The notes beneath the pieces were generated by a model that had not been told where the DNA came from, did no database searches, and saw nothing but the letters and a program-made list of their open reading frames with translations. The position numbers were made by a program, and so were the translations under genes. From assembly GCA_051599415.1 (NCBI GenBank), contig AP039697.1:1-64000 (forward strand): DNA of 64,000 nucleotides, in the 5' to 3' direction. This stretch comes from Savitreella phatthalungensis. Lineage: Eukaryota. Below are positions 3,879 through 51,751 of the stretch, piece by piece (the stretch's first letter is position 1; each line of letters begins with the position of its first letter).

Positions 3879-3988
3879 ATATTGTGGGATCTGTCTGCAT
3901 CTGCGTCGGAGCTGGACTATCTATTCTTCTCTTGCGCGGACACGATTCATACCAGTCCTTCTGCCTTTCGGAATATGCTCAAAGAAGG

Positions 3989-5359: not shown

Positions 5360-5575
5360 CGAGATCTGAAATACGGTATACTGATTGGAATCCTCTTCTG
5401 CGTAGTATGACGATATGTCTGATTGAGCGCAGATGATCAGGACATTCACCGGATCGTCGTTGCACGGTTGACGACATAGGGACATTTTTTGTGGAGCCGT
5501 CACTAATACAAGACCTGGAGACTTCAAACCTCGGTCGCTAGCGACTTCTTGAGGTCCGCGGAGGTGGGCTGGGTT

Positions 5576-6991: not shown

Positions 6992-7620
6992 CCAAGAAGC
7001 GCTTTAGTTTTGATGACGTCGCGGACTGTCAGTGAAATACGCGTGCCCCTGGCAAGCGAGCCCTGGTGAATTTGCGATCTCGTCTTCTCTGACAGCATGT
7101 TCCAATTGTCAATGGTATCTCGCGAGAGATGCTTGTCAGTATCGCATGGCTCAATCCTGTGAACAAAATCACGGTATGCATCTCCTTGCGTGACAAGCAA
7201 ACTGCCCGGCTCCTGCAACAGCCGCATAGCCACTCTGCCGTCGGTCAGCACTTCGTAAACGCAGTGGCTCGCGAGGCTGATGGTTGCAACGCAAGGAGAG
7301 TAGACCGGACCATCGTTGTGCGCATCGATACCCTGACCGGCAAGATATTCATTGATTAGAACATGATTCGGTGCCGCATGAGCTGTAGCCTGAAACCAGC
7401 CTTCTCGCCTGAGTCGCTCGCAGAGTCCTTGAAGCCAATCAGGAAGGGCCTGCTCGATCAGGGTGTCCCCACGGACAAGCGCGGAGGGCCAGACTTGGAG
7501 TCGTCGCGCAGCTAGGTCCACCCAGCGAGCGGGCTGCTGCGCGTACACTCTATCGAGCAATGCTCTTTCGTCTTCCGAATTCAGCCAGTTACAGACATAA
7601 TTGACATTAGACAGCATCAT
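6949..7620 (-). CDS. AlkB-family 2OG-Fe(II) dioxygenase, ALKBH6-like
   Basis: PNHVLINEYLAGQGIDAHNDGP (HxD), TISL, distal H (HRI), RISLTVR. Confidence 0.88.
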   Translation of the reverse strand: MMLSNVNYVCNWLNSEDERALLDRVYAQQPARWVDLAARRLQVWPSALVRGDTLIEQALPDWLQGLCERLRREGWFQATAHAAPNHVLINEYLAGQGIDAHNDGPVYSPCVATISLASHCVYEVLTDGRVAMRLLQEPGSLLVTQGDAYRDFVHRIEPCDTDKHLSRDTIDNWNMLSEKTRSQIHQGSLARGTRISLTVRDVIKTKALLGYRSKLKSKPILPS

Positions 7621-14318: not shown

Positions 14319-14588
14319 GACTGTGGAGAGCGGAGCTGAGCCTGCAAGCAAGCAAGAGGTACCTATACCTTTGCCTTTGCCTGCCCGTGTGTTTGAGCTT
14401 ATCGGGTGCCCGTCAAGTTGGCGATGAGGATCGACCCGCACGTCAATTTTGCGTCGAGCGCATCCGCTGACGTCCCGGAGCAACTACAGAGAGCCGCTAT
14501 ACTTTTAAAAGCCGAAATTTCATCTGGGCTAGGCTCATGCAGCAGCGTCAGCATCGATGTGATTGGACGAAAAAGGTCTAACGCTGAA

Positions 14589-16175: not shown

Positions 16176-16300
16176 GCGGTCAGGAAGTGATATTGCGCCG
16201 GTTCGTGTCTCGTTTTTCACTTGAACATATGACGCGGCTAAGCATAAAGATATCTCGCTAGGTATCCATGTATACTGTACAAGGTTCCTGGTGACTCAGA

Positions 16301-16342
16301 ACCCCACAACGGGGTAGCCAATGAATTTCTATTCGGCCCGAA
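16301..16342. promoter_or_regulatory. Candidate CreA/Mig1 site (CCCCAC) and inverted CGG-N-CCG Zn2Cys6 site in divergent GH32/transporter promoter
   Basis: ACCCCACAACGGGGT at 16301-16315 and TTCGGCCCGAA at 16332-16342; short motifs supported only by context. Confidence 0.35.
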
Positions 16343-16446
16343 CGTACTAAACCGTATCTGGCAAATATGTCAGACATGAGGTGACGCCTGCCTGACCTGG
16401 ACAAGAGAACGCTCTTCATCAGGTGGGTACATGATATTGGCTTCAG

Positions 16447-18012
16447 ATGTCCCAGCTAGGCAAGGGAACGTATCTAGACTCTGTTGAGCTCAAGATCACT
16501 CCTGTGCGTCGTGAAAGCTATGTTCGAAAAGGCGATGCGCAGACACGAGGCGTACCATGGACGCCGATGCTTGTGCTTGCCTGGTGCACCTTTGCAGCCT
16601 CGCAATTCGGCTACGGGTATGATGACAAAGTGATTTCACCGATTGCTGCGATTCCACAATTCGTGGAGCGATATCAAGGCCGAGATCGTGCTACTGGAGA
16701 GCTCGTCCTTTCTGCTCGACATCAGAATCTTGTTTTCTCTCTACCGCTCGTAGGCGCAATCATCGGCGCCATCATGACGACGCCCTTGAACAAAAAATTC
16801 GGCCGCCGTATTCCACTTGCTGCTAGCTACATATTCTCGCTTGGCGGCGGTTTCTTGCAGCTTTTTGCGCCAAATCTGGCTGCCTTTGTCTGCGGACGAT
16901 TCCTGAACGCGATAATCATGGGCATTGCCATGGCTACTGCACCGCTTTATCTCAGTGAGATTGTGCCACCTGCATATCGTGGAGCCGCGGTCACAACGAC
17001 GAACATATTCAACCTCGTCTCAGGCGTGGTGGCTACTGTGATCGCAAACGCGACCCACGCTAGGACAGGCTCATCGTCGTACAGAATACCACTCGCAGTT
17101 CAATGCTGCATTCCTGTGGTTCTCGTACCGCTCACATTGATCATACCGGAATCTCCTCAGTGGCTCGTTGCACATGGTCGATGGGACGAGGCACGGCGAA
17201 ATCTGCTCAAGCTACGTGCTTTTGGTGACATCGAGGAGGAGCTGCGGCTGATGCATCTTGTTGAAGACCATGAGCGCAAGTCTGATGTACAATTCAGCGA
17301 TCTCTTCAGTCGAAAAAACATACGTCGAACGATTACCGCAGGAGTCCTCTACTCCGCTAACCAAGTCTCCGGGATTATTCTTTCGACTACATATGCAACA
17401 ATATTCTTGACACAGCTGGGCGTTGCGGACCCTTTCGGTCTGACCATCGCCGCATCGTGCTCAGTCCTTGCTGGCACGGTGGTCGCGCCGTTCCTGATTG
17501 ATCGTGTTGGTAGAAGACCACTCGCGCTTGCAAGCATGTCAGCATTGTTCTTCATTGACCTGGTCTGCGGAGCGCTCGCTTTTTATACCGACCGGCGAAG
17601 CTATGCTCTGACTATCGCCATCCTGAGCTTCATATTCAATTTTTTCTGGGCGGCCGGGTTTTACTCGCTTTCACTTACCGTGCCCGCCGAGATCGCGACA
17701 CCGAAATTGCGGAGCCTTACAGTTTCATATACTGTCGGCTGGTCATATGTCACAGCTGTCATCACTACACTGGCTGTTCCTCAAATTACAGCTGCCGACG
17801 CGGGCAATCTTGGTAGCAAGGCCTATCTTATTTTCGCAGGCTGCGTTGCATGCGTTATCGTCTTCGTCTACTTTTGTTTACCGGAGACCGCGCGTCGGAC
17901 CTTCGCCGAAATTGACGAGTTGTACGATCGAGGCGTGCCGGCACGGAGGTGGCGTCACGCTCAGACGTCGCCGGAAGCACAAATCTCGAGTGGAGTCAGC
18001 GTGTCGGGATGA
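16447..18012 (+). CDS. MFS sugar porter (maltose/alpha-glucoside/sucrose permease-like)
   Basis: GYGYD, KFGRR, YLSEIVPPAYRG, PESPQWL, DRVGRRP, PET motifs; ~12 hydrophobic segments. Confidence 0.93.
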   Translation: MSQLGKGTYLDSVELKITPVRRESYVRKGDAQTRGVPWTPMLVLAWCTFAASQFGYGYDDKVISPIAAIPQFVERYQGRDRATGELVLSARHQNLVFSLPLVGAIIGAIMTTPLNKKFGRRIPLAASYIFSLGGGFLQLFAPNLAAFVCGRFLNAIIMGIAMATAPLYLSEIVPPAYRGAAVTTTNIFNLVSGVVATVIANATHARTGSSSYRIPLAVQCCIPVVLVPLTLIIPESPQWLVAHGRWDEARRNLLKLRAFGDIEEELRLMHLVEDHERKSDVQFSDLFSRKNIRRTITAGVLYSANQVSGIILSTTYATIFLTQLGVADPFGLTIAASCSVLAGTVVAPFLIDRVGRRPLALASMSALFFIDLVCGALAFYTDRRSYALTIAILSFIFNFFWAAGFYSLSLTVPAEIATPKLRSLTVSYTVGWSYVTAVITTLAVPQITAADAGNLGSKAYLIFAGCVACVIVFVYFCLPETARRTFAEIDELYDRGVPARRWRHAQTSPEAQISSGVSVSG

Positions 18013-19766: not shown

Positions 19767-19887
19767 TGGAAGACTGGTCACACTGAGGAAAGGATGATCA
19801 TAAGATACGGGAGTGGGGGTGGATTTATACTTCCACCCCCGGACTAAACGAAAGTGTGGCTGTGCCCATGATCATGCTCACGTAGCA
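19767..19887 (-). repeat. 3' LTR (121 bp)
   Basis: Base-for-base identical to 25641-25761 by manual comparison. Confidence 0.95.
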
Positions 19888-22800
19888 TCTGCCGGGGTAG
19901 AAGTGAGTCGCGTCTCGCGACTGTCATTGTTGTCATCATCATCGTTTGACATTTCTTCGTTAATATCGTGCGTGGCCATTTGCGTAGCTCTTCGTTGTCG
20001 CTCTTTGCGAGTAATTTGTGTTTGTGCGCGTTGCTTCAGTATAAGCTCTTCCTGTTGCTGGCGGTGTGAGCGGTAAGCGTTCAGTAGGTCTCCTCCGCCA
20101 AGGTCTAGAACCGTTGCGACTTTCTCCCATGTACGGTCGACACTAGGCAGGCCCTTCCATAGCACACACACTTCGATATTGGTGCCACCTCGCCCACGTC
20201 CAATACGCTCTCCAAGGATGTCTTCAATTTCTTTTGGAGGTGGCATCGGCAGCTCCGACCGTCGAGGTGGTTCGGTGCCGGTTGCAGGCTCAAGTTTCGC
20301 GATAGAGAAGACGGGGTGCAAACCCCAGTCGTGAGGTATATCAAGTTTGTAGGCCAAATCACTGATCTTTTCTGTGACAGTGAATGGTCCAATTCGCTGC
20401 GGCCCAATCTTCCGGTTACCAGGTATGTTCTTGAATTCCCTGATGTCCAAATACACTTTGTCGCCTGTAGCGAAGCTTTGTTCCATACGCTTCTGATTGC
20501 AATGGACAGCCATCATGGCTTGGGCGTATTTGGTCGCTTCTTCGGCCGCTCTGGGTATCTTGTCTCTGGTGGAAATGAACTCCTCTACTGCGATCAGCTT
20601 CACGTTGTCTTCCAGGTTCATGGTAGAGTCCCTAGGTCGAGTACCATACAGAAGCTCAAATGGACTGGTTTTGATAGTGCGATGATAACTCGAGTTGATA
20701 GCAAATTCGACATCGCCTAGGAATCTCCACCAATCTCCCTGTACCAAGTCAACATAATGGCGGAGGGCTATTTCCACTGTCTGGTTTGACTTTTCGGACT
20801 GCCCATCTGCTCGGGGGTTATAAGCTGTCGACATACTCCTTTTGATTCCGGCCCTGCGCAGTAAGGAGGTCCAAAATGCTGAGGTGAAACGCGCATCACG
20901 ATCAGATATGATGCGACGCGGTAAGCCCTGGAATCGGACAATCTCGTCATAGAAGCGTTCTCCTACTGTATAAGCATCATCATCCTTGCGGCATCCCACA
21001 ATGCGTACAATTTTCGTGAACTTGTCGGTGACTGTGAGGAACGCATCCCACATCTCCCCTCTTGCTCCGGCTGGCCCTGACGGTGGCAACCCGGTGACGA
21101 AATCGATTGTAATAGTATCGAAGGGAACAGCTGGGGTTTGTATCGGTTGACTGAGTCCATACTCCGTATGCCTGAGGATGTTGTTTGATCGACACTGGGC
21201 GCAGGAAGCAATCATTGCCTTTAGCATAGAGCTGAGGCGAGGATGGTAAATGTGCTTTAGTCGATTAGATGATTTCAACACACCTTGGTGTCCGTGATCG
21301 CAGTGAGAGTGCTCAATCAGCTCCTTGACTTCTGAAATTGGGGGACATCGCCTGTCTTGCTCTCCGTCCTCTCGCATGAAGATGTAGTTGTCTTTCATAT
21401 AGAACGCATCCAACGGTACTCCCTGGACGAGTTGTTGGTGAATCATTTTCAGTGACTCATCTAGAGCATAGTTTGGTACCTCTTGTTCATTGCTCGCGGG
21501 AGGGGGATCGTCAGTCATATGTGCTGGTTGGTCTGTTTCCGACTCCACCGGGAAAACTTCTTCCATTCGACTGCCTGGCTGAGGGTCTTGATGCAGTCGA
21601 CTAAGTGCATCTGCATTGCTGTGTTTCTTCCCTTCTCGGTGTACAATCTTCAATGGATATCCTGCGAGGTAGATGGCCCATCGCGCAAGTTTACCATTGC
21701 GTCCTTTGCCGACAAGGTTTTGTTGTTTTTGAAGCCATTCCAGAGGTTTATGGTCAGTAACCACTGTTAGTTCATGGCCATTATCGAGGTAATGAGCAAG
21801 CTTTTCGACAGCCCACACGAGACATGCGCATTCCAGCTCGGTCACCGCATAGTTCTTCTTGTGATTGTTCAAGCCCTTACTAATGTATAGGACAGGTCTT
21901 TCTTGGCCATTTGAAACTTGGTGCAGTGTCGCGCCAAAACCGTCATAACTGGCGTCAATGTACAGCTTGAATGGAGCGGAAAAGTCAGGCGGAGCCAGGG
22001 TTTCGGTGCTACTCAGCTTATCGATAACTTGGTTCCATGCTTTATTGGCTTCGGGGGTCCAACGGAGTTGTTTTTGTTGTATGTCTTCGTATCGTGCCGT
22101 CGGTTTGTCCCCAAGTCCTTGCGGACATTGCGAGCCGTGAAAGATTAGCTTCACTCCCCTACTGATGTGATTCTTTAGTTCCAGCAGTGGTTTGATCGTT
22201 TGGGAGTACCCGGGTAAGAAGTGTCTGTAGTATCCGAACAATCCAAGTGCAGTTTCCAGCTCTCCGAAAGTCTCAGGTTTTTTGAGTTCTGTCATCGCTT
22301 TTACTTTCTCTTCATGCGAGGATAGTCCCAGTCTCCCCACCTTGTGACCTAACACCGCCACTTCTGAGTACGCCAGATGAGCCTTCTCTGGTGCCAGCGT
22401 AACATTGTTACTGTCCAATTGGTTCAAAATGTCGCTGACTAGGGTCAAATGCGATTCGAAGTCCGGGGACCACAATATGAGGTCATCCAGGTAAGCAACA
22501 GCATCTTTCCACAAGTGAGATCCTAGCAAAGTGTTCATTCTTCTTTGGAAATAGGCTGGGCTGTTGACATAACCCATAGCACACACCGTGAACTGCTCTA
22601 GTCCACGATGCGAGGTTACGGCAGCAAATTTTCTTGATCCTTCCTCAATGGGAACTTGATAGAAACCTTTCTTCAAATCAAATGTTGAGATGAAAGCCGC
22701 TCCCGCTACTGCCGACAGGACATCGTCCTGCCGCGGTAAAGGATGTGCGTCCTTCACCACTAACTGATTGATGGGTCTGAAGTCGATGACTGGACGGGCT

Positions 22801-23194
22801 TTTCCATTGTGATGTGTCACAAATACTCGCGATGCATAAGGCGAGTCCGATGGTTCCAGCCGGCCTAGTCTGGTGAGCTCATCAAACACCTCGTCCACTT
22901 CCTTTCTACCGTTTGGAGAGAGTCGGTACGGAGCAGGTGCATTGAAGCTAGTTTCCTTGTCTTTGAGTCGTATGTTCATTCCAGGTCCCGGCAAGAGGCC
23001 TAGCTCGGATCGGAATACCCGACTATACTTAGCAAGAACTGCTTGGAGTCGTGAACGTTCGTGCTCAGTCAATCCACTGTTGATGTCGATGGAAGCGAGT
23101 CGTTCAAGACCATCATTGTGGTTCATAGGTTGGGTGTAGTCAGGGACTGCCTTGTCCGCAGCGGAGTCGAGGTCTTCTGACTCCGCTGTTAAAA
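19878..23194 (-). CDS. pol: Pol: reverse transcriptase, RNase H, integrase, chromodomain; probably entered by -1 frameshift from gag-pro
   Basis: IDFRPIN, DLKKGFYQ, YLDD; YIDAS, TELE, TDHKPL, NADALSR; HHCC, IDFVTGLP, SDRD, DGQSE, GPF; LWKG..TWE chromodomain; frame open back through the gag-pro stop. Confidence 0.95.
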
Positions 23195-25561
23195 AGACTG
23201 GGAGTTGTCTTGAATTCTGGCGAGTATTTCTCCATTGCCGAGTACCTTGGGATGGTTACTGTGATTGGTAATGGGAACATACCCAGTTCCGTCACCGTTG
23301 ACAATGGATTCGCCATCAATGGTGATCTTGTCCAAGGCCGAATCAACCTGATAGACAGGGAAGATACGTGTTTGGGTGTTAGTAGGCATCTTGACAGGGA
23401 CTGCCGTTTGTGTAAGCGGAGGCAGAACAAAAGCCTTTGCCATGCGGACCCTTGTGTCAGGAACAGGTGAGTAGTCTTGCGTAAGTGCGTTGCGGTGAGT
23501 GTCAATGTAGTTCATTGAGCTTTTCATTGGGCCCACCAGCCTATGCTGGGGTATTTCGAACTGATTTCGTGCTCCATCAATCACCATGCCATAACACCTG
23601 ATCAAGTCTTGTCCAAGGATGATCCCAACGTTGAGCGACGATATGATGTGGAAGTATTGTTGCAACTTAGCGTACCCTGAAGTTGTAAGCAACCATATGT
23701 CGAGGTTGACACCACGCTCTGAGGCTGTATGGACTCCGGGCACAACTCCCTTGATGGTAATACGGTCCTTCTTCGCCTTAGTCTCGATCTTCGCTTTCGG
23801 GTAGTGGAAGTTTAGGTATTTCTCTGATACGATGGAGATTGCACTCCCGCCGTCCAGAGGCTTCCACTTGGCGACACCATCACGACGATGGGCCACTTTG
23901 ACTTGAGCGCTCACGGATTGCTTTGCATCCGGGGCTGAGGTTAGAGAACCAATGGGTCGAACCACAACTTCATGTTTAATAGGTTCGCTGAACCTCACCC
24001 TTTTTGATTTGTTACGCTCGTGCTGAACGGTTAAGGAGTTGGTGAGCTCGTCAGTCTCGATTTCGGCAAACCAGGTCGAAGAGTCGCAATCACTATCCGT
24101 ATTATCATTGGGAGGTGGACGTTTGTCATTACCTGCCTCATCCTCTGACAACTCTGGTGAGGGTAAAGTGTCTTGGGTTTCACCGAGGTGTGATCGGACA
24201 GCCGTGGTATCACAGGGAGTAGCATTTGGCCCACTATACCAATGATACTTGCCGCAATTGTGGCATGCCCTGCGTGGCTTACCTGAGCTTTGCGCATTGT
24301 CTTGAGCCTTGATCTCAGTACCCGTTGCCCGACTTTGATGATATCCCGAGGAGGATGAGAGGTTATGAAACTTGCGTGCCGCTTGATCGATACGGCGTAA
24401 TTCTTTCTCCAACTGCTCCACCGAGGTGAATGAAGTCTCATGCAGAAGTGACTGATATTCGTCAGGGAGGCGTCGGACGATTTCGTACGTGATTGCAGAT
24501 GGCGAGGTAATTGAAGCTTCGACACAAGCCGCTCGGACGCTTGCGGTGAAGCCCATAATTCCATCTCTCCAATTGAACTTGATCTTTTCCAGCATCTGCT
24601 GACCTTGGTACACTGTGGGAGCATATCGATTTTCAATTAGCCAACACCATCCTTCGACAGTGCGCCGAGCGTCCATGGCATCTTCATCGGTTGAAGCGAT
24701 GATTGAGTCGAACCAATCGACTATCTCCTTAGGTGTCTCTTCGTTAATAAGTGACCTTTTGAGTCCTCGGAGAGTTTTCTCTTCCCCGTAGAGCTCTTGC
24801 AGAGACTTGAGTCGGCGAGTGAATCGACGGGCATTCTCTGCCGTCAATATGCCGACGTCGTCTTGCCTGATCTGCGTCTTATTGTCTCCGCTGATGGAGC
24901 TGGACCCAAAGAATGGGGTGCCGAGGGCAGTTCCCTGCGGTGCAGACGGCCTGACAAGTCCCGGACTTTGACCAACACGGGTTTGACGCAGTACGGAAGG
25001 TGGAACATAGGCCGTTCGAATGTCATCCGGTCTGTAACTACCAGCCCGGCCGTCCCTTCCATACGTCACCTCCCTGGCTAATTGAATGTCACCCATGCTC
25101 GGCATTCCAGGAACGACGTTCGGAGTCATACTAGGGTGCATCGTTCGATCTTGGCGAATATCTCCAGACATGGATGGATTGCGGCGAGCATCTCCACTTT
25201 GGAACTCCGCACGAGGTGCCGATCCTTCTGGCATACGTCGGGGCATCTCCCGTGCAGGATCCGGTCGGACGGTTGGCGCACTCCTATCCTCTTGGAGATA
25301 GTGCTCCATGATATCCATTCGACCAGTCAAGGAACGACATTCTCCTCCTATCTGCGTAATGGATTCTTGGAGTCCTTCGATAAGGTCAAAGAGACGCAGT
25401 TTATCTTCACGAGTAAACGACTCCGCTTGCGACTCGGGATCCATGAAACGCGTTGATTCCTCCACTGGGGGACCAGCGCGAGACGCGTCATGTGCCGTAG
25501 GGGGTCTTTGCGCAGTCGCGCGTCCCTGAGCAGGATCGTCACGTGAACCACTGGACGACAT
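23189..25561 (-). CDS. gag: Gag-protease polyprotein
   Basis: CHNCGKYHW...C knuckle-like motif, LDGGSAISIV aspartic protease motif with IILGQD; first ATG at 25561. Confidence 0.85.
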   Translation of the reverse strand: MSSSGSRDDPAQGRATAQRPPTAHDASRAGPPVEESTRFMDPESQAESFTREDKLRLFDLIEGLQESITQIGGECRSLTGRMDIMEHYLQEDRSAPTVRPDPAREMPRRMPEGSAPRAEFQSGDARRNPSMSGDIRQDRTMHPSMTPNVVPGMPSMGDIQLAREVTYGRDGRAGSYRPDDIRTAYVPPSVLRQTRVGQSPGLVRPSAPQGTALGTPFFGSSSISGDNKTQIRQDDVGILTAENARRFTRRLKSLQELYGEEKTLRGLKRSLINEETPKEIVDWFDSIIASTDEDAMDARRTVEGWCWLIENRYAPTVYQGQQMLEKIKFNWRDGIMGFTASVRAACVEASITSPSAITYEIVRRLPDEYQSLLHETSFTSVEQLEKELRRIDQAARKFHNLSSSSGYHQSRATGTEIKAQDNAQSSGKPRRACHNCGKYHWYSGPNATPCDTTAVRSHLGETQDTLPSPELSEDEAGNDKRPPPNDNTDSDCDSSTWFAEIETDELTNSLTVQHERNKSKRVRFSEPIKHEVVVRPIGSLTSAPDAKQSVSAQVKVAHRRDGVAKWKPLDGGSAISIVSEKYLNFHYPKAKIETKAKKDRITIKGVVPGVHTASERGVNLDIWLLTTSGYAKLQQYFHIISSLNVGIILGQDLIRCYGMVIDGARNQFEIPQHRLVGPMKSSMNYIDTHRNALTQDYSPVPDTRVRMAKAFVLPPLTQTAVPVKMPTNTQTRIFPVYQVDSALDKITIDGESIVNGDGTGYVPITNHSNHPKVLGNGEILARIQDNSQSF

Positions 25562-29487: not shown

Positions 29488-31452
29488 ATGTCTTTCCTGG
29501 CTGTGGCTGCTCTTGCGGCGCTCGCAGGTTCGGCGCAGGCTCAAACATTCCGCCGTCTCGGTGGATGCCCTACACTCGGCTGCATCTTCCCACCTGACCA
29601 GGCAAATTTCATTCCCGGTGGACACTTTGACCTCCGGCTTGAGGTGCACGCTCCCCTCAACGGTAGCGAGGCCTTCAATGGTGGCACACCCGACCGAAAC
29701 TTCACAATCTTCATTGGCAAGCAGGGACAAACGCCCGTACCTGCCCAGCAGTTCTTCGCTACCCAGCAACAGCCAGCCCTTGAACAGTGGTCTTTCAACT
29801 ACTACGAGGACCTTTACGCGGAGGCCGCGAAACGTGCTACCCGCGTCAATGTGGCGTCACGTGCTTACCGCTATGTCTCAATCAATGAGCCGGGTACATA
29901 CATCGCCCAGCTTCGTTACTACAATGGCACCACTACGAACGCCACATGGCATGTTGTCTCGCCTCCTACCCCACGAAGGCGGGCAAAGAACGTTATCTTC
30001 TTCATCGGCGATGGCATGACAACAAATATGATCACAGCCGCACGACTAATCGGGCATCCCTCAGTCAATGGTATCTACCAGAGCAAACTCGCTTTGGATA
30101 CAATGGAATACCTGGGTCACTCCATGACCCACTCCTTGGACACTTTCATCACCGACTCGGCCAACTCGGCAACAGCGCTCTACACAGGTCATAAGTCTTC
30201 TGTTGATGCACTGGGCGTCTACGGCGACTCATCGCCATCCACTCTCGATGATCCAAAAGTTGAGACTATCGTTGAACTCTTCAAGTCGCTGCGTCGCGGC
30301 ACTTCGCAGGTTGGCATCGTGTCCACAGCGTTCCTCGCAGACGCGACTCCAGCTGCGCTGACCGCCCACACTCGCCAGCGTGGCGACTACCAGACTGTAC
30401 TTGAACAGTATCTCTATGGTGTCGGTGTCAATTACACTTGGACCAATTATACATCACCGGATTACATCGCAGGAGCTGGTGCAGAGAACTTCTTGAAGGG
30501 CGGTTCGATCTCGAACTCTTCCTTCTACTCCCAATTCGCTTCAAAGGGCTACCAGGTCTTGCTGAACCAGACTTCTCTAATGCGCTCGTCTAACACGACG
30601 CGCACGCTCGCAGTCATGTGCCAGAGCAACCTCAACAAGTGGCTGGACCGCAATGTCTACCGCCAGAACCTCATCGGCATGAAGAACGATCCCGCAGGCG
30701 GATCTGGCGATGCACTCGACCAGGCCGGTCTCCTCAATATGACAATCAAGGCCATCGACGTCCTGAACGCCCGTGACACGAACAAGGACGGATTCTTCCT
30801 CATGTCGGAGGCTGCCTCGATCGACAAGATGATGCACGTCCTCGACTACGACCGTGCTCTCGGTGAACTACTCGAGCTTGACCAGACAGTGAATGCCACC
30901 ATGCGTCATTTGCGTCGCCTCGGCATAGAGAACGACACCCTGATCGTTGTTACGGCGGATCACGGTCACGGCTTTGACGTTTTCGGCAATGCTGACACTC
31001 GTTACCTTGCAGATGCAAAGACTGACCGTCAGAAGCGTCAGGCGATCGGCAACTACGAACGCTCAGGTCTTGCCACAGGCCAGTACATCGCTGTCGGTTC
31101 GAACGCAGGCTTCCCAACGAATTGGAATCCGCGTTACACCCTGGCACAAGGCTTCGGAGCACACCCCGATGTGCGCGAGGACTACTCTGTCAAGCAGAAT
31201 GTCACGGGCGGCTCGCGTCTGCCTGCCGTGGCTAGCGCCAACGGCACCTCTGACTACATTGTCAACCCGCGTGACTCGCCTAATGGCTTTGTCACAAACG
31301 GCACTCTGCCAGTCTCTGCGCCCCAGGGCGTCCATTCGCTTACTGACGTCCCCGTTTATGCGACAGGACCCGGCGCCGAGCTCTTTTCCGGCACAATGAA
31401 TAACATCGAGGTCTTCCAGCGCATGGTTGGTGCGCTGCAGCTTCGCAAGTGA
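29488..31452 (+). CDS. Secreted alkaline phosphatase with N-terminal extension
   Basis: Signal peptide; FIGDGM, TDSANSAT, ADATPA, EAASIDKMMH, TADHGH, GVHSLTDV; TATAAAAG ~90 nt upstream. Confidence 0.93.
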   Translation: MSFLAVAALAALAGSAQAQTFRRLGGCPTLGCIFPPDQANFIPGGHFDLRLEVHAPLNGSEAFNGGTPDRNFTIFIGKQGQTPVPAQQFFATQQQPALEQWSFNYYEDLYAEAAKRATRVNVASRAYRYVSINEPGTYIAQLRYYNGTTTNATWHVVSPPTPRRRAKNVIFFIGDGMTTNMITAARLIGHPSVNGIYQSKLALDTMEYLGHSMTHSLDTFITDSANSATALYTGHKSSVDALGVYGDSSPSTLDDPKVETIVELFKSLRRGTSQVGIVSTAFLADATPAALTAHTRQRGDYQTVLEQYLYGVGVNYTWTNYTSPDYIAGAGAENFLKGGSISNSSFYSQFASKGYQVLLNQTSLMRSSNTTRTLAVMCQSNLNKWLDRNVYRQNLIGMKNDPAGGSGDALDQAGLLNMTIKAIDVLNARDTNKDGFFLMSEAASIDKMMHVLDYDRALGELLELDQTVNATMRHLRRLGIENDTLIVVTADHGHGFDVFGNADTRYLADAKTDRQKRQAIGNYERSGLATGQYIAVGSNAGFPTNWNPRYTLAQGFGAHPDVREDYSVKQNVTGGSRLPAVASANGTSDYIVNPRDSPNGFVTNGTLPVSAPQGVHSLTDVPVYATGPGAELFSGTMNNIEVFQRMVGALQLRK

Positions 31453-44902: not shown

Positions 44903-46132
44903 TCATTCGTGGTACATTCTGTCGATCCAGCGCTGTGCGAGTGCGAGCTGTGGGTCGCAGCGATCATGTGACCAGTCCCAGTCCGGACTAAACAAACGCA
45001 TGTATCTTCCTGCCACAGACTCAATCATCTCATCTTCTTTGAGTTCATGAACGGCAATAGCCTCGTCGTGGAGATGAGCGTGACGATTTGGTGCTGACAG
45101 CTCAGATTGCGGATCGTAATGAATGAAAGGCATTGAACGAGGCTGCCAATTTAAAGTGCGATTTAAGGCCACCAGGTATGCAGCGGTATCTGCGTCCTCG
45201 TACAGCGCATACCGATGCGTCGTCTGCTCGTCTGGCTGAACTTGAGAGAGATCGTGCAAGCTATGCACCAAGCTATATGCATTTTGTGGCGACATGTCCT
45301 TGACCATGTCGAGACTGAGTCCATAGCACATTCCGGACATGTACAAATGCTTCTGAAAGAAGCTTGGAAAGCCAGGCAGATTCGCTGGCTTGCCCCAATA
45401 GACCTGTGGGAGCCCAACCAGAGACACCAAGTCGCGTGCTGCATTTGCAAAGACGACGAATGTGTCGTCATCAACCTTTAGCACCATGTCATAAGGCAGT
45501 TCTGGTGTGTATCGCGAGGAGCTATGTGTTGACTCAGGTGAACCTTTCTGCGCCATCGGACCACGCATGAGCGCTTCTCGAACGGCCTCCTGGCCGTATG
45601 TCTTGTCTACATGCTCAAACCAGGCAAACGTCTTGCCACGATTCATGTCCTCCCCGATATCGAGCTCGATCAGATCGTTGAACTCGGCTTGTTCAGCTTC
45701 GATCGCGATTCGAAGAGCTTCGTTTTCTATGCGACCGAGGACAAAGCGGATCTCGAAGTGTGCGCGTGGGAGGAACTTTGAAATCACTGGTTGCTGAGCC
45801 TTATAGACCCTGCGAAGCGTGTTGCGTCTCGATCGTGTGCCTGGTGTCGTGAAAATGCCAACGAGTACTGAGAGGCGCGCTTCAGAGCTACAGTCGTGCA
45901 GAAAATGTTGATGACTGACAGTGTCATCGCGAACGTCGGGTCCTACTTCGTTCTCAGGGGAGAAACTGTTCCACGCTACTGTCAAGTCACCTGCAATGAG
46001 CCGAAATGCTTTTGCAACACTCTCGCCATCGAGTGTGACATCGCGCGATAAAGAGAGGGCCACAAAAAAGACTGTGGAGCACATCAGTGCTATGATCCCA
46101 AGCAGACGTAAGCGCCGGCGGAACAGTATCAT
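44903..46132 (-). CDS. GT31 beta-1,3-galactosyltransferase-like type II membrane protein (Pvg3-like)
   Basis: N-terminal TM; RRNTLR, FVLG, EQAEFNDL, EDMNRGKT, KVDDDTFV, YMSGMCY, EDA motifs. Confidence 0.82.
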   Translation of the reverse strand: MILFRRRLRLLGIIALMCSTVFFVALSLSRDVTLDGESVAKAFRLIAGDLTVAWNSFSPENEVGPDVRDDTVSHQHFLHDCSSEARLSVLVGIFTTPGTRSRRNTLRRVYKAQQPVISKFLPRAHFEIRFVLGRIENEALRIAIEAEQAEFNDLIELDIGEDMNRGKTFAWFEHVDKTYGQEAVREALMRGPMAQKGSPESTHSSSRYTPELPYDMVLKVDDDTFVVFANAARDLVSLVGLPQVYWGKPANLPGFPSFFQKHLYMSGMCYGLSLDMVKDMSPQNAYSLVHSLHDLSQVQPDEQTTHRYALYEDADTAAYLVALNRTLNWQPRSMPFIHYDPQSELSAPNRHAHLHDEAIAVHELKEDEMIESVAGRYMRLFSPDWDWSHDRCDPQLALAQRWIDRMYHE

Positions 46133-46561
46133 CTTCGAATCTGTCAATCAAGCTGCCTTCAATAGCTTGAACTATTCTGTCGCAGCTCACGTTGCAATAG
46201 CCACGCTTTCCAGTGGTCAGCAAGAGCTATACCTTCGAAGATGTATGATTCGAGCGTCTTTGACCGCAAAGTTTACGTCAGTACAGGACCTGGATCTGCA
46301 ATGATAACTGTCTATACTGGACTCGGGTCTGTGTATATTGTTTGTACGAACATGTGATGTGCATCTTGGCCTCCACAAAACTCACAAAGCCGTCTTTCTC
46401 ACTCGAATAGCATCATGCAGACGTTCGCGAGCCAGTGAATACTGCGCCACTTCCGTATTGAACGCTCAAGTTGGAACTGATGACATTTGCCGTGGAACTT
46501 GGGTCTCAAGCACCCCTTTTTTCGAGACGAACCGTGAACTGCTCGCGGGTACACGAGCAAC

Positions 46562-48211
46562 ATGCGAGAGCAGGGTCTTGTGAAAACGGGCTCTTCTGCG
46601 ATTGAGCTTCAGCTGAGAAGCACCGAGCAGGATAGACCTGCTCCCTCGAGATTTCCATATTGCCGCCACCTGCGCAAATCAACAGCTTTGCTTGCACTTC
46701 TACTAACGGCACTTACGGCGATTTTCACAGTTTCACTACGATACTGCGATATAGGCATCGCCAGGGACTATCGGAAATCAGCAAGATCACCCGGCTATCA
46801 GTCTACGGCATGCCAGAATATGAGCCATCGTCCACATCTGACAGAGCCTGGGATTTGCCCGGAACACATACCAGATGTGGGAGTCTGGTTTGAGCTGGAG
46901 GCGCTACCGGCTGGTAATCTTAATGCGTTCGAATACGATCTATGTATGGTGCGTTTGACTGACTGCGTTCGCGCCGCTCCGTGGTCAAGTCCTTATGTGC
47001 TAATGCATCAGACCTCGCCAGAATCGAGTAGTTACAGCAATACGCGTGTCAATAGCACTGTCTTTCCACAGCTGATGCACACCTTCAAATTGGTGAATGA
47101 CGATCATGATCACTATGGTCGTCATAGAGAGAGCATGTTCAGGTGGCGACTCCGACAGCCTACGTGGCAGCACTTCCTGTGGGACGATGACAGCGGTTCT
47201 AAGCTTATCGAGCTGAATCTGCCGGAGATTCTGCCGATGTACAAGTCCGTGAGCCTCTCCCTCCGCGCTGAAGTCGTCAAAGTAGTAGTGCTCTGGCGGT
47301 TCGGTGGAGTATGGCACGATGATTTGGTTGAGAGTCTAGCCAGTTGGGAGGAGTTCGAGCGAGAGCTCATGAGATGTGTTATCGCTCCGCGATGGCAATC
47401 ACACGCACAGGTGTTTGTGTACGCAGATGACCCACAAACGAGATTGCCGTCGACGGCGCTTATCGCTTCGACATCGCATCATACCTTGCTTGAGGAATTC
47501 TTCGCGAGCTTGCAGCATCTCCGTGAAGAGGCAATTGCAATCCATGATGGTGAAGCTTTGCCAGCTTACCGGTCGCACTCACAGCTTCATAAGGTCAGAC
47601 TCATGTTTTCAGCAAATGGGCTTCGCGATGCGCTTCTGAGATTCGAGACTCGACGCGGCGCGGATGACAGAGTACTGTCAGAAGCATCTGGTCATAGGCT
47701 TGCCGACGGAATAGTTGTGAAGCTGTCAACCGACTTTGTGTATCCAAGCATCGATATCAGTCAACGCGTCTTGCAAAAGGGAGCCCTCTCCAACGACCTA
47801 GAGCAATTGAGAAAGGCCTCGTCCGAGATCAAATTAGGTTGGCAGACTTCAGAGTCTGCGGCCGAATACAAACAGGCGCTCTTTTATTCCGACACTCTTA
47901 GAGCGGCGTGCGACTTTGAGCATGTACTGTTCGATGCAGATCTATGCCAATCGAAAGGACTTCGATTGTATCGAGGCTTTCCCTGTCACATGCCCTACAA
48001 CAAGCAAGACTGTCTTCCGCTACATCGACACGACTTTAGACACGATATCGATGTCGCCACGAAGACTAGCACTCGAATGGGCCATGTACGTCAAGCTCTT
48101 TCGCCCGAATCTGATGTATCAGGAATTCCTCACACACGGCCGCCACGTTTTCCCCATCTGACACTCGACTGGCGAAAGGTTTTGGTCAACAGATCAAGAG
48201 CCGCTGCCTAG
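46562..48211 (+). CDS. GT32/DXD sugar-binding-like glycosyltransferase (Och1/Sur1-like fold), degenerate DXD
   Basis: TM anchor; FPQLMHTF, W...QPTWQHFLWDDD, RAEVVK..VLWRFGGVWHD, HH.LL. Confidence 0.65.
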   Translation: MREQGLVKTGSSAIELQLRSTEQDRPAPSRFPYCRHLRKSTALLALLLTALTAIFTVSLRYCDIGIARDYRKSARSPGYQSTACQNMSHRPHLTEPGICPEHIPDVGVWFELEALPAGNLNAFEYDLCMVRLTDCVRAAPWSSPYVLMHQTSPESSSYSNTRVNSTVFPQLMHTFKLVNDDHDHYGRHRESMFRWRLRQPTWQHFLWDDDSGSKLIELNLPEILPMYKSVSLSLRAEVVKVVVLWRFGGVWHDDLVESLASWEEFERELMRCVIAPRWQSHAQVFVYADDPQTRLPSTALIASTSHHTLLEEFFASLQHLREEAIAIHDGEALPAYRSHSQLHKVRLMFSANGLRDALLRFETRRGADDRVLSEASGHRLADGIVVKLSTDFVYPSIDISQRVLQKGALSNDLEQLRKASSEIKLGWQTSESAAEYKQALFYSDTLRAACDFEHVLFDADLCQSKGLRLYRGFPCHMPYNKQDCLPLHRHDFRHDIDVATKTSTRMGHVRQALSPESDVSGIPHTRPPRFPHLTLDWRKVLVNRSRAAA

Positions 48212-48314
48212 CATATGATGTGCGGCCGATGTGATTGACGAGCAGCGCTTCGTTACTATATATACTGCTCTAGCGTGCTGATTTGACGCATGAAAACTCG
48301 CCTCACGGCTGCCA

Positions 48315-49550
48315 TTATTTTTCTGCTTGTGAATGTCGACCCTGACAGAGCAACTTTTGCATTTCTTTGGCAGCGTCGTGCGTGTTGTGTGCGAACGTAG
48401 TGGTTCGACAATCTTGGAGCCAAGTCTGATCATATCGAGCGATTTTTGCGTACTCTCCCTCCTCCAGCACGACGTGTCGCAAACCCCAGAGCGAGCCCAG
48501 GATATGAGCGTGCAAGCGATCCGAGACATACGCTCGAGCAGATGTCAGGAACTTATTTGCAGCACGGACTCTGTCCAACGCACGATCTGGCAGGCTGATT
48601 CCTTCATACTTTGTCACGTCTTCATCGAGCCAGTCTCCAGCAATGACTGAGACTGCCGTTGATATGTTACTCTCGCCTTGGGAGCGCTGCAGATCGTCTC
48701 GGAAAGCTTGAAATCCTTTTCCGTGATTTTGTCCAGCCTCTAGATCCGTCCTAGCTTGAAGCAGAACATCTTCCGGGATCTTTATCTCGCTCTTCTGTCG
48801 ATCATGCGCGTATATAAACATTTCGCGCGGCAAGCAGAACAGCATAGTCGCTGCGTCCGGGAGCATTTCGATAGAATTAGCGCGGAATCTCTCGTGCATG
48901 AGGTCGAAAGACTCCAGATCACGTGCGGCTAGCTGAAGGTCTTGGTGTCTGCCGAAGACATCGACTGCACGCTGGAGATTCTCCTCAGAATTGAAAGCAA
49001 TCGTTTGCGGGAAGCTCCGAATACTGTAGTCAGGGAAATCAGCTGCCACATGTTCTCGCATTATTTGATGATCCGGGTAGAGGTCTCCGAAGTTACCACC
49101 GCCGTGAAAGATGATGCCAGCCACTGAAGCTCCCCCTGCAGCCTCGAGGACAGCCCTGATTTTTTGTTTGTCGTATGACGACAACCAAACGGTCATTCCA
49201 ATGATCGTCTTGTTAAGCATTCGCAGGAGCGTCTCCTCGCCCAAGAAGATCGCGCTATCACCCTTGTTGGCGTGGTCTGGGAATCCAACGAGAACAAATC
49301 CCTCTTTGTCACGGAGTAGGTCTTCATAGACACCAAGCAGTAGCTCGACCTGATTTTCAAAGCTCAATGCGCACTCGGGCGTCTCAGGCTGACCTGGGAA
49401 TTGCGTATTATCCACACACACGTTTGTTTCGGGGGATACCACTGTCGTACGCAATGTCACATGATTCTGACGATCAGAGACGACCAAAATCTGAAGGAAG
49501 AAGACCAATAACCCGGAGCCAATGAGTATCCCCGGCAAAAGGCGGCTCAT
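48315..49550 (-). CDS. pvg1: Polysaccharide pyruvyltransferase, Pvg1-like
   Basis: TM anchor; DHANKGDSAI, HGGGNFGDLYPDHQ, FPQTI, ARD..SF, LPDAA, SDRLHAHIL, Y.KI..Y..TW. Confidence 0.9.
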   Translation of the reverse strand: MSRLLPGILIGSGLLVFFLQILVVSDRQNHVTLRTTVVSPETNVCVDNTQFPGQPETPECALSFENQVELLLGVYEDLLRDKEGFVLVGFPDHANKGDSAIFLGEETLLRMLNKTIIGMTVWLSSYDKQKIRAVLEAAGGASVAGIIFHGGGNFGDLYPDHQIMREHVAADFPDYSIRSFPQTIAFNSEENLQRAVDVFGRHQDLQLAARDLESFDLMHERFRANSIEMLPDAATMLFCLPREMFIYAHDRQKSEIKIPEDVLLQARTDLEAGQNHGKGFQAFRDDLQRSQGESNISTAVSVIAGDWLDEDVTKYEGISLPDRALDRVRAANKFLTSARAYVSDRLHAHILGSLWGLRHVVLEEGEYAKIARYDQTWLQDCRTTTFAHNTHDAAKEMQKLLCQGRHSQAEK

Positions 49551-50725
49551 GATTATGTTCCTGGGCAGCACTTGACGATTACAAGCCTTCAAACAGCAAC
49601 CCCGGCCCTTGACAATCCGCACGCCTTACGCCGAACTCAACGACTTGTCCGGAATCTGTAATTTGGCGTCCAGTCTTGGAGAGACGCGTGATAATGCCAA
49701 ACCCTCCCTGCAATGCGTCAAATCTCCATCGTGATTCGGTACGATACTCGCGGGGAATGCAGACAATTTAATGAGCCTGAAAGCGGCGTGGCCATTTCCA
49801 AGCCAACACAGAAACGATGTGGTCAAGACTGCCTAGTCATTGTACTACAATAAGGACTAGTAAAAAGATCTATCAACTTGTTGTGCACTACGATTCCGCT
49901 TTGTAGTCAGAGAGAGCCAGTGAAGTTCCTATCGTGGTCGAATCGCCCAATTGAACTTGGATCTCAGTGTCGCGAACGCGCCCGGCCGAAGGTATGGCTT
50001 TCGTCAATCTCAAATGATCAGGACATGACAAAGAGCCTAGTAATGTTTGAGTAGGATGCACAGGAAGCTTGGAGAACAACGATTTGCATTTGACAGCCTT
50101 TCGACTTCGTCCAGACGAATGGTCCACGACATCGTCCGGCTCGTTCCCCGATCCGCTTCGTATGAACTATACGAGGGGAAATCGGCGTTTGTTGCGTTTT
50201 GCGTTCGCTGGCGTGTGCCCAAATCACCACGCGATAGCGAATGAGCCATGAAACCAACTAATACGAAGGATCAAGGATGTCGGAAGCCCACAATGTGCCA
50301 CCGGAACCTTTTCAAGCTTGTACCCACCCAGCGGTCGACCTGCTTTTCTGTGACGGCACGAGAATATTATCGCACAAGCATACGAAGTGACGTCAATTGA
50401 CACGAGTGAATGTGTATCACGCGATCTTGCTTCGATGACATTGTCTAGAACGCAGCAATAACTTCAATGAGGTTCCATGCACGCGATGCTTTCGTCAGAC
50501 TCACATTTTCTGAACGCAGCTGCTAGTCTTTACATTACAGGAATGATGCTAGCTATATATGTATATATATGCACGTCAGCAATATACACGTGCTTGCCCC
50601 GTAAAGTGTGTTCAGATGCTGACCACTGCACCGAACCACAGAGCTCAAGGTACTCAACACGACATCGACAGACGGTACTGAACCAAGTGTAAGGGTCTAC
50701 CAAAGATTGAGGGCGCCAAGTATCA

Positions 50726-51751
50726 ATGACCACAATGGACCGGACCGCTTCCAGTCGCATGTATGGAGCGTGCGCAATATCGACACACGTTGCCAGTGCG
50801 CTCGTTACGACGTTAATCAACAAAATTGCTCTTAATACTGCGGCACTTCCATGTCTTCTTATGCTCGCACAATCGCTTATTGCTATCACGATAATTTACT
50901 CGGGTAGTCTTGCAGGCTTATGGCAGGTCCGCTTCCTTCCAGCCAACGACTTGCGCCACTTGTTACCGTACTTTATTGCAAGGAGCGCATCACAAGCATC
51001 CAAATTGATCTGCTTGCGCGCTGTCGATGCGGCTTTCTACCAAGTCGCCAGAGGCCTCCTCCTGCCCTTCACAGTTATCCTGTCATTCTTCCTGCTGCGT
51101 AACTGGGCGATCTCAAGGCTCGCATTTGGCGGATGCATCATTGTGATCTTTGGCTTTGCCATTGGCTTGAGAGGTGAATTGCTGGCCAATACAACCAAGG
51201 CCGGTTTGCCGATGGGTTCTTTGTCGGCTCTTGCTACAGCGGCCGAGACTGTCTCGCTGAAGCGCTGCCTGGACGATAAAGGTCCCAAGTTGCTCGACAT
51301 TGCGCTGACTGCATCTTGCTTTAATGTACCATTCGCCGCGCTTCTGGCCTGGGTCACGGGTGATAATGAAATGCTAGTCAGGTATGTCTACAGCGATGCA
51401 CAAAGGTTATCTATTCAGAGACTGATCGGCATCTTCACCATTTCAGGACTATTCAGTTGCATCCTGTCGCTGGCTACGCTCCTACAGATTTCAGTCACCT
51501 CACCTGTGACGCATATGGTGTCGACGGCTTTCCGAGGAGTGCTGCAGTCCGTGATAGCCATTTGTGTCTTTCGGACGGAACGCCTCACTTCTTCGCGCAT
51601 CGTCTCCCTCTCCGTCATCATCTCAGGCACGCTGGCTTATAGCTACGGCAAGGAGCTGGAGCGTAGCATTGCTATCACCGAGTCTCGCAATCTTCAGATG
51701 CGCAAAAATGGAAATCTACAGGAGCAGCATCGGGGCGCCATTTTCGGATGA
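50726..51751 (+). CDS. TPT/nucleotide-sugar transporter family Golgi transporter (SLC35C1-like/Pet1-like)
   Basis: INK..L, CLRAVDAAFYQVARGLLLPFTV, LQISVTSPVTHMVS..RGV; ~10 hydrophobic segments. Confidence 0.85.
   Translation: MTTMDRTASSRMYGACAISTHVASALVTTLINKIALNTAALPCLLMLAQSLIAITIIYSGSLAGLWQVRFLPANDLRHLLPYFIARSASQASKLICLRAVDAAFYQVARGLLLPFTVILSFFLLRNWAISRLAFGGCIIVIFGFAIGLRGELLANTTKAGLPMGSLSALATAAETVSLKRCLDDKGPKLLDIALTASCFNVPFAALLAWVTGDNEMLVRYVYSDAQRLSIQRLIGIFTISGLFSCILSLATLLQISVTSPVTHMVSTAFRGVLQSVIAICVFRTERLTSSRIVSLSVIISGTLAYSYGKELERSIAITESRNLQMRKNGNLQEQHRGAIFG

Follow-up and report, generated by a model that had tools for sequence, protein, structure and literature searches.

A candidate clustered Golgi glycan-pyruvylation module in Savitreella phatthalungensis

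Introduction

In the literature that we searched, ketal-pyruvylation in fungi is described only from fission yeast, where the Schizosaccharomyces pombe pathway to pyruvylated galactose (PvGal) requires five pvg genes (PMC6994554, PMC6801904). Here, we asked whether a block of four genes in S. phatthalungensis, which an earlier reading of the DNA letters (the sequence-only reading) had interpreted as a complete PvGal pathway, encodes such a system in clustered form. The window analysed is a stretch of 64,000 nt (GCA_051599415.1, contig AP039697.1, positions 1 to 64,000).

Results

Arrangement of the locus

The features of the locus are as follows:

44903-46132, (-) strand: GT31-family gene, 409 aa, uninterrupted ATG ORF
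46133-46561: GT31/GT32-like intergenic region, 429 bp between divergent starts
46562-48211, (+) strand: GT32-like gene, 549 aa, uninterrupted ATG ORF
48315-49550, (-) strand: pyruvyltransferase gene, 411 aa, uninterrupted ATG ORF
49551-50725: pyruvyltransferase/transporter intergenic region, 1175 bp between divergent starts
50726-51751, (+) strand: TPT-family transporter gene, 341 aa, uninterrupted ATG ORF

As first proposed, these are four consecutive single-ORF genes in two divergent pairs, GT31/GT32-like and pyruvyltransferase/transporter, which form one 6.8-kb block; the proposed position between SSD1 and RPL17 also holds, the flanking genes being an RNB-domain gene, which we take to be SSD1-like, and RPL17 (PF00237). 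The stop codons of the GT32-like and pyruvyltransferase genes are 103 bp apart, and the 429-bp region may be a shared promoter. The 1175-bp gap contains no ATG ORF of at least 80 aa and no notable repeat, and comparison of the cluster promoters revealed no convincing common repeat. The MADS-type site YTAWWWWTAR does not occur in the 64,000-nt window (0.74 expected), and there is no MADS-box or other transcription factor gene within the four-gene block. A single hydrophobic segment lies near the N-terminus of GT31, the GT32-like protein and the pyruvyltransferase (best windows of 19 residues: 10-28, 41-59 and 1-19, respectively), in agreement with the type II anchors attributed to them previously.

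The pyruvyltransferase closely matches Pvg1

The pyruvyltransferase, which is single copy (one match in the genome), scored 63 bits against PF04230 (cut-off 25.3) and matched S. pombe Pvg1p (PDB 5AX7) with E 2.9e-56 and 35% identity across 78% of the query. Using the Pvg1 active-site residues listed in PMC4872226 and PMC6801904, we found that seven of seven are identical, i.e. D98, H161, R210, D232, R345, L346 and H347 correspond to S. pombe D106, H168, R217, D240, R337, L338 and H339; the YPDH acceptor loop is also identical in the two proteins. S. pombe H168 shapes the acceptor choice of Pvg1 (PMC4872226), and of the 21 fungal sequences that have a residue at this alignment position, only six carry an equivalent of H161, i.e. 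the cluster protein and five Schizosaccharomyces sequences. Phylogenetically, the enzyme was placed in a fungal clade with Pvg1 (UFBoot 100) to which the bacterial pyruvyltransferases are the outgroup. Within the maximum-likelihood tree, it grouped on a long branch (1.0 substitutions per site) with proteins from Protomyces and Exophiala (UFBoot 99) and not with Schizosaccharomyces. We conclude that the enzyme is almost certainly a Pvg1-type ketal pyruvyltransferase, with a predicted type II topology.

Two putative glycosyltransferases and their acceptor

The GT31 protein scored marginally below the PF01762 cut-off (22.7 bits vs 23; E 9.5e-5) and reached 0.95 to PF01762 clusters in the ESM Atlas. 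The motifs that we take to be functional in this family are intact: RRNTLR (102), KVDDD (219-223) with the DxD at D221-D222-D223, GMCYGLS (267) and the downstream ED (312; E312-D313). A word-seeded search returned no GT31 homologue at E<=0.001 among 8000 candidates, and the PDB sequence search gave no meaningful match. The PF01762 profile search of the genome had 0 matches and also missed the cluster GT31 and the controls; therefore, it gives no GT31 paralogue count. GT31 is a probable type II membrane beta-galactosyltransferase that may have a Pvg3-like role, and we consider it fairly likely that it makes the acceptor for pyruvylation.

The GT32-like protein scored 21.5 bits against PF04488 (cut-off 23), 24.3 bits in a second run, and 0.96 to PF04488 clusters in the Atlas. 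The canonical GGxYxDxD is absent and reads GGVWHDDL (D253-D254-L255); the DxD is retained in all five aligned GT32 paralogues from the same genome. No meaningful match was obtained in the PDB sequence search. The AF2 model (pLDDT 52) had Och1 (9n3s) as its best Foldseek match with E 1.8e-4, a match that is partly circular because the model was built on a GT32 alignment. The protein is probably a degenerate Och1-fold type II membrane protein and a non-catalytic or atypical partner. By analogy with S. pombe Pvg2 and Pvg5, which we assume to contain GT32 domains, it may play a Pvg2/Pvg5-like role, and on balance we lean slightly towards its participation in pyruvylation.

We also considered that the pyruvyltransferase and the phosphoenolpyruvate (PEP) carrier act as proposed while the glycosyltransferases make some other acceptor (an O-glycan, a glycolipid, a secreted polysaccharide, another linkage or the product of an active GT32), in which case the locus would be a pyruvylation cluster and not S. 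pombe PvGal. Fungal GT31s include glycolipid and capsule side-chain enzymes, and in Cryptococcus, GIPC and capsule are the targets of GT31 paralogues (PMC11150766); in addition, the GT31 homologue search was empty. Moreover, the black-yeast-like metagenome contig L008, in which 12.3 kb were examined, lacks GT31 and GT32-like genes and carries two GT25-like genes in their place, so that acceptor-making partners vary; GT25 had no match in the S. phatthalungensis genome. Conversely, the set of GT31, GT32-like, Pvg1 and Pet1-like proteins mirrors that of S. pombe, provided that Pvg2 and Pvg5 have the presumed GT32 domains, and H161 matches the acceptor-shaping and, among the aligned fungal sequences, rare H168. 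A different acceptor is, in our view, unlikely, and we retain a beta-galactose acceptor as the working model.

The transporter and its probable substrate

The transporter has six hydrophobic segments above threshold (19-residue windows), scored 49.5 bits against PF03151 and belongs to the SLC35C1-related TPT subfamily; it shares ~20-24% identity with a group that we call SLC35C1-like, a label assigned on motifs that we assume to be diagnostic. The PDB sequence search gave no meaningful match, and a search there with the transporter profile retrieved Vrg4 and a plastid-type translocator alone. In a tree in which S. japonicus EEB06899.1, presumably the Pet1 orthologue, served as fission-yeast member instead of S. 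pombe Pet1, and from which support values were read in unrooted tree files, the transporter formed a clade with pyruvyltransferase-linked transporters (UFBoot 81), nested in a clade with EEB06899.1 (UFBoot 100; 33% identity); support was 100 for the clade of 19 and only 54 for an inner clade of 11. Positions 86 and 93 are K or R in all 25 clade members with letters there, including S. japonicus, in 0/27 SLC35C1-like and in 0/77 other sequences. The SLC35C1-like group has K at 270 in 26/27 and N at 93 in 23/27; where this group has F, N and K, the cluster transporter has R86, K93 and R270. One member of the transporter clade bears the JGI label 'GDP-fucose transporter C1'. The clade also contains a paralogue from the same genome (on contig C18, next to a SNARE-like gene) as well as Kwoniella and Microbotryomycetes proteins, and no pyruvyltransferase from the latter two was among the best 120 of 331 matches; because of these members, neither clade nor basic residues are exclusive to pyruvylation.

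A GDP-mannose dehydratase (gmd), the marker used for de novo GDP-fucose synthesis, was not found over cut-off in the possibly incomplete genome (the highest TIGR01472 score was 50.7, against a cut-off of 415; three candidates scored), and two weak matches score instead as dTDP/UDP-glucose dehydratase and GalE. Together with the absence of N93 and K270 equivalents and the basic 86/93 signature, this led us to reject a GDP-fucose carrier. The sequence-only reading had regarded grouping with GDP-mannose/fucose carriers as evidence against its proposal. The transporter is indeed SLC35C1-related, yet so is Pet1, whose human orthologue is SLC35C1 itself (PMC7218141 Table 1), which makes that test ill-posed; the transporter lies in the clade with the S. 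japonicus protein, marked by the two basic residues. Based on clade, linkage and Pet1, the transporter is likely a Pet1-type Golgi PEP carrier.

Alternatively, the transporter could supply the clustered glycosyltransferases with a nucleotide sugar, e.g. UDP-galactose or UDP-rhamnose, with PEP entering via unlinked Sly41-like/Ymd8-like TPT genes. The SLC35C1-family origin, the (automatic) UniRef name 'GDP-mannose transporter' on close relatives, a probable rhamnose-pathway gene pair in the genome, other TPT genes on contigs C7 and C15, and the presence of more than one PEP carrier in S. pombe (PMC4872226) are compatible with this. Nevertheless, the L008 transporter stays with the pyruvyltransferase although the glycosyltransferase family changes, residues that characterise the SLC35C1-like group are replaced, no gmd was found, and the SLC35C1-related carrier of S. 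pombe is Pet1; we therefore regard nucleotide-sugar transport as improbable and PEP as the favoured substrate.

Linkage of pyruvyltransferase and transporter in other fungi

A synteny check had been proposed with the original claim. The enzyme-transporter pair is linked in three of five other fungi, i.e. Protomyces lactucae-debilis (ORY78521.1 and ORY78522.1), Exophiala sideris (LTS07_001053 and LTS07_001052; accessions consecutive in three assemblies) and L008, where the genes are head to head (pyruvyltransferase 10001-10837(+), transporter 3585-4703(-)). The pair is not adjacent in the other two: EEB06382.1 and EEB06899.1 of S. japonicus are separated by 517 accessions, and in E. xenobiotica different scaffolds carry PV05_06760 and PV05_02859. 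The linked proteins of these distant fungi are 33-41% identical to the cluster proteins and fall in the same two clades. As a control, the transporter profile matched 1 of 82 loci around pyruvyltransferase relatives, which was L008; the other 81 are nearly all bacterial-type. The sequence-only reading had regarded the S. pombe genes as not forming one compact cluster; they are not entirely scattered, as pvg5 (SPAC22F8.02c) and pet1 (SPAC22F8.04) have near-adjacent systematic IDs. As in S. japonicus, pvg1 and the transporter gene presumably lie apart in S. pombe.

Because conserved linkage was seen for the enzyme-transporter pair alone, this pair could be the entire functional unit, with GT31 and GT32-like genes as unrelated neighbours; the genome has further glycan gene pairs elsewhere, so that glycan genes can meet by rearrangement. 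However, rough estimates, chosen post hoc and assuming 5000-6500 genes, put the chance of a four-glycosylation-gene run around Pvg1 at ~3e-6 to 1e-4, i.e. 1e-4 or less (and that of Pvg1 lying beside one of two SLC35C1-like genes at ~6-8e-4), and the 103-bp distance between stop codons and the S. pombe pvg5/pet1 neighbourhood also speak against unrelated neighbours, an explanation that we consider quite improbable. Finally, a silent or decaying relic, as the long Pvg1 branch and the degenerate GT32 motif might indicate, is hardly credible given four full-length open frames, an intact set of Pvg1 active-site residues and intact GT31 motifs.

Origin of the cluster

The GC3 of the cluster genes (0.52-0.59) overlaps that of the 18 other window genes (0.54-0.69), and we rejected a recent foreign origin on this basis. 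The maximum-likelihood tree is suggestive of horizontal transfer of the pyruvyltransferase, not significantly so: a tree keeping Schizosaccharomyces, Protomyces and the cluster protein together was not rejected (AU p=0.095). A viral collection yielded two distant matches only and no transfer vehicle. We tentatively speculate that fungal pyruvylation might descend from bacteria as an ancient, clustered cassette that passed as a unit between Taphrinomycetes and Chaetothyriales; its carrier would have been recruited from the SLC35C1 family through two basic substitutions, and its beta-glycosyltransferase would be exchangeable (GT31 here, GT25-like in black yeasts). Fission yeasts would retain it in scattered form, pvg5-pet1 being a remnant, and species of Exophiala, opportunistic pathogens among them, might bear unrecognised pyruvylated surface glycans.

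Discussion

Active site, phylogeny and conserved adjacency make it very likely that the locus encodes a clustered Golgi pyruvylation core consisting of a Pvg1-type enzyme and a PEP carrier. The physical clustering of PEP import and ketal-pyruvyl transfer claimed at the outset is supported by these data, including adjacency in distant fungi. That all four genes form a Golgi glycan-pyruvylation module is a prediction we favour with some reserve. The data do not support a complete pathway: the block has a single GT32-like gene and lacks a transcription factor, compared with five pvg genes in S. pombe.

In the proposed mechanism, the transporter would import cytosolic PEP into the Golgi lumen, as suggested by clade, linkage and Pet1; GT31, of which the family is better defined than the linkage type, would build a beta-galactose acceptor using UDP-Gal from unlinked genes; and the Pvg1 orthologue would place pyruvate as a 4,6-ketal on the terminal beta-galactose, as judged from S. 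pombe Pvg1, with the resulting caps making the cell surface negatively charged. Besides GalE, the genome has four GT34 genes and a nucleotide-sugar transporter that scores strongly against PF04142. The DxD-less GT32-like protein might act as partner or scaffold in the manner of Pvg2/Pvg5, the weakest step and one drawn by analogy.

Our literature search found no description of such a clustered fungal pyruvylation locus, and the data suggest that pyruvylation, known mainly from fission yeast, occurs as a clustered module in other fungi. From the compact cluster and the conservation of its core in Protomyces and Exophiala, we predict anionic caps resembling sialic acid on plant-associated and black yeasts, the surface charge of which bears on adhesion, flocculation and recognition. 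The linkage supports, on independent genomic grounds, the unusual specificity of Pet1-type carriers for PEP, and R86 and K93 are two candidate specificity residues. The four-gene block offers a minimal gene set with which one could reconstitute the pathway and probe DxD-less GT32-like proteins, the role of which was an unsettled step in a 2019 review (PMC6801904).

With the S. pombe PvGal pathway (Pvg1, Pvg3, Pvg2, Pvg5 and Pvg4, which is Mbx2 (PMC5990653), with Pet1 and Pet2), the cluster has in common the Pvg1 active-site residues, an SLC35C1-related TPT, a GT31 and type II topology. It differs in that its four genes are packed into a single 6.8-kb block, whereas in S. pombe only the pvg5/pet1 IDs are neighbouring, and in having a single GT32-like gene and no transcription factor. 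With the SLC35C1 GDP-fucose transporter family, the transporter shares the TPT fold and the YQVAR and SP-TH stretches. Cryptococcus neoformans Ggt1-3, found with Pvg3 as query, are likewise fungal GT31 beta-galactosyltransferases but target GIPC and the GXMGal capsule (PMC11150766). Bacterial exopolysaccharide loci with EpsO/EpsI-type pyruvyltransferases also cluster a pyruvyltransferase with glycosyltransferases; the S. phatthalungensis cluster, in contrast, consists of separate eukaryotic genes and includes a predicted Golgi donor importer. A fungal donor-plus-carrier gene pair is known in glfA-glfB.

Arrangement of the cluster

The window forms the start (64 kb) of contig C9 in a genome of 12.7 Mb in 27 contigs, and its genes are uninterrupted for the most part. 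The sequence-only reading had described two divergent gene pairs, and the four ORFs, their strands, their pairing and the flanking genes all agree with that description:

44903..46132, minus strand, GT31
46562..48211, plus strand, GT32-like
48315..49550, minus strand, pyruvyltransferase
50726..51751, plus strand, transporter

Each of the three enzymes has one N-terminal hydrophobic segment. The Pfam scores of the GT31 (22.7 bits) and the GT32-like protein (21.5 bits) are borderline against the cut-off of 23, and a language-model search concurs with both families (GT31 0.95, GT32 0.96). By a rough, after-the-fact estimate based on ~26 window genes counted by eye, the chance of such a four-gene run is 1e-4 or less.

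The pyruvyltransferase and the transporter

The window pyruvyltransferase, the only match of its kind in the genome, matches the crystal structure of S. pombe Pvg1 (E 2.9e-56) and has the Pvg1 motifs intact, with conservation of 7 of the 7 residues to which PMC4872226 and PMC6801904 give a role in catalysis, in binding PEP or in the choice of acceptor. From 331 matching relatives, the best 120 were listed, and the tree was calculated without matches 51-120. The window protein and the best 21 of the 331 form a single fungal clade (UFBoot 100), the named members of which are from five Schizosaccharomyces species, P. lactucae-debilis and four Exophiala species; two Elasticomyces-labelled entries cluster with E. 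sideris, and Knufia peltigerae and Rhinocladiella similis are represented through cluster members. The other matches in the tree lie outside this clade and are bacterial-type wherever named. Around Pvg1, the 2019 review (PMC6801904) mentions just a minor group of Ascomycota.

Within the TPT family, the transporter is a member of the SLC35C1-related branch. Table 1 of PMC7218141 gives SLC35C1 as the human orthologue of S. pombe Pet1 and none for S. cerevisiae, so this relatedness is no argument against PEP transport. The genome yielded no GDP-mannose 4,6-dehydratase. A profile search gave 4834 matches, with the best 150 listed, and trees were built from 138 sequences, each 270 aa or longer, and, for ML, from 39 sequences. 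The window transporter falls in a clade of nine (UFBoot 81, FastTree 0.98) with P. lactucae-debilis ORY78522.1, E. sideris, E. xenobiotica and the black-yeast-like metagenome contig L008; the enclosing clade (UFBoot 100, FastTree 0.99) adds S. japonicus EEB06899.1, labelled 'triose phosphate transporter', a paralogue on contig C18 and basidiomycete-yeast proteins. The putative orthology to S. pombe Pet1 runs through this S. japonicus protein. At window-transporter positions 86 and 93, K/R is present in all 25 larger-clade members with letters (3 of 28 gapped), in none of 27 SLC35C1-like and in none of 77 other sequences (6 of 83 gapped), the larger clade having been delimited on the same alignment that gave these counts. 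Two added basic residues on one helix face would suit a small polyanion.

The C18 paralogue (L003:1273-2442; ~277.3-278.5 kb) carries both basic residues and has no linked pyruvyltransferase; its nearest named relative among the matches listed is a P. lactucae-debilis protein (57% identity), and its orthologue in that species is ORY82535.1. On the strength of that relative, the genome probably belongs with Taphrinomycetes-like fungi. Kwoniella and Microbotryomycetes transporters (P0157, P0136, P0129, P0130) are in the same clade, with no pyruvyltransferase from these fungi among the matches listed; their cargo in some Golgi reaction may be PEP or a different small anion. Three database proteins, P0195, P0291 and P0163, combine a related TPT with a second domain, GT61 in two cases and galactose-1-phosphate uridylyltransferase in one, as either true fusions or merged gene models.

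Linkage and evolution of the two-gene core

Pyruvyltransferase and transporter are adjacent in three of the five other fungi tested, a set that covers one of the E. sideris copies and does not extend to E. spinifera or E. oligosperma. The first two cases are judged by accession order: ORY78521.1 and ORY78522.1 are consecutive on one P. lactucae-debilis contig, and E. sideris has LTS07_001053 and LTS07_001052, with consecutive accessions in three assemblies. On L008, which pairs with Exophiala in both trees, the two genes lie head to head with ~5 kb between them. The pair is non-adjacent in S. japonicus (517 accessions between, same scaffold length for both) and on different scaffolds in E. xenobiotica, where further copies are possible. 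As a control, the transporter profile matched 1 of 82 loci around pyruvyltransferase relatives. These loci, almost all of bacterial type, comprise two from viruses and the 80 top-ranked of 475 confirmed metagenome matches.

In the ML tree, the pyruvyltransferases of the window, Protomyces and the Exophiala-like group form a nest from which Schizosaccharomyces is absent (UFBoot 99). The transporter tree looks much alike, though its support is lower (66-81). These tree shapes, together with the patchy distribution, suggest joint transfer of both genes. The AU test, however, did not reject the vertical tree (p=0.095), and the cluster has no base-composition sign of recent import. An ancient origin with many losses may apply instead.

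The two glycosyltransferases and galactose supply

The cluster GT31 has the expected motifs intact (DDD 221-223 and ED 312-313, with the roles we presume for them). GT32-like domains occur in Pvg2 and Pvg5. The GT32-like protein of the cluster reads D-D-L where five of five aligned same-genome paralogues have DxD, and its structure model, of modest quality, resembles Och1. Because the homologue search with the GT31 retrieved no relative, the GT31 is not assignable to Pvg3 over the other clades of fungal GT31 (PMC11150766). That paper, citing Fukunaga 2023, states that Pvg3 works only within a complex, with which a GT32-like non-catalytic partner would fit.

Within 12.3 of the 17.6 kb of L008, neither the GT31 nor the GT32-like family was found; instead, the core genes have two type II membrane genes with introns as neighbours, one beside and one between them:

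1435-2956, minus strand, GT25-like gene
5987-7720, minus strand, GT25-like gene

We take these to be GT25-like on the basis of their motifs together with a single weak exon match (PF01755, E 0.015, one of six exon frames). Because beta-galactosyltransferases occur among GT25 enzymes, these genes may replace the acceptor-making GT31. The galactose-pathway needs in the window's genome (GalE, a strong PF04142 transporter and four GT34 genes) are all at unlinked loci.

Other features of the window and genome

Further features of the window are:

1-1500, near the start, CCCTAA telomere-type repeats and variants
2151-3878, after these repeats, GH35 beta-galactosidase gene
3989-5485 and 29488-31452, two alkaline phosphatase genes
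12828-18012, probable sugar-use cluster of three successive genes (Zn2Cys6 transcription factor, GH32 invertase-like, sugar transporter)
19878-25561, minus strand, LTR-retrotransposon-like element (gag/protease-like ORF and RT-RNase H-integrase ORF)

Three divergent pairs lie elsewhere in the genome. A dTDP/UDP-glucose 4,6-dehydratase-like and an RmlD-like gene (L006:985-3113; C3, ~14-16 kb) probably serve nucleotide-rhamnose synthesis. A UDP-galactopyranose mutase-like flavoprotein and a TPT transporter (L099:1-2394; C5, ~597-600 kb) presumably resemble glfA-glfB. An acyltransferase-3 and a GT32 gene near the contig end (L089:1-2559; C5, ~11-13.5 kb) are possibly another glycan-modification pair.

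Proposed mechanism and comparison with S. pombe

In our working model, PEP would be imported into the Golgi lumen, where beta-galactose would be added and 4,6-ketal pyruvylation would follow, with the GT32-like protein serving as a partner. The earlier reading of a complete PvGal pathway is supported in part: the analysis establishes the protein families, the topology, the intact Pvg1 and GT31 motifs, the transporter's clade and the conserved pyruvyltransferase/transporter linkage, whereas we infer the part of both glycosyltransferases, as well as substrates, glycosidic linkage and compartment. We consider it highly probable that the block serves glycan pyruvylation and somewhat favor the four-gene reading.

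In the literature searched, which holds few subscription journals (where much S. pombe work appears), we found no publication that describes a pyruvylation cluster in fungi and none that connects a pyruvyl transferase with Exophiala. Within this literature, the chemistry is known and the clustered arrangement, with a two-gene core conserved across distant fungi, is new. S. pombe pvg5 is SPAC22F8.02c (PMC5068932) and pet1 is SPAC22F8.04 (PMC5990653); the systematic IDs imply that they are near-adjacent on opposite strands, perhaps as a relic.
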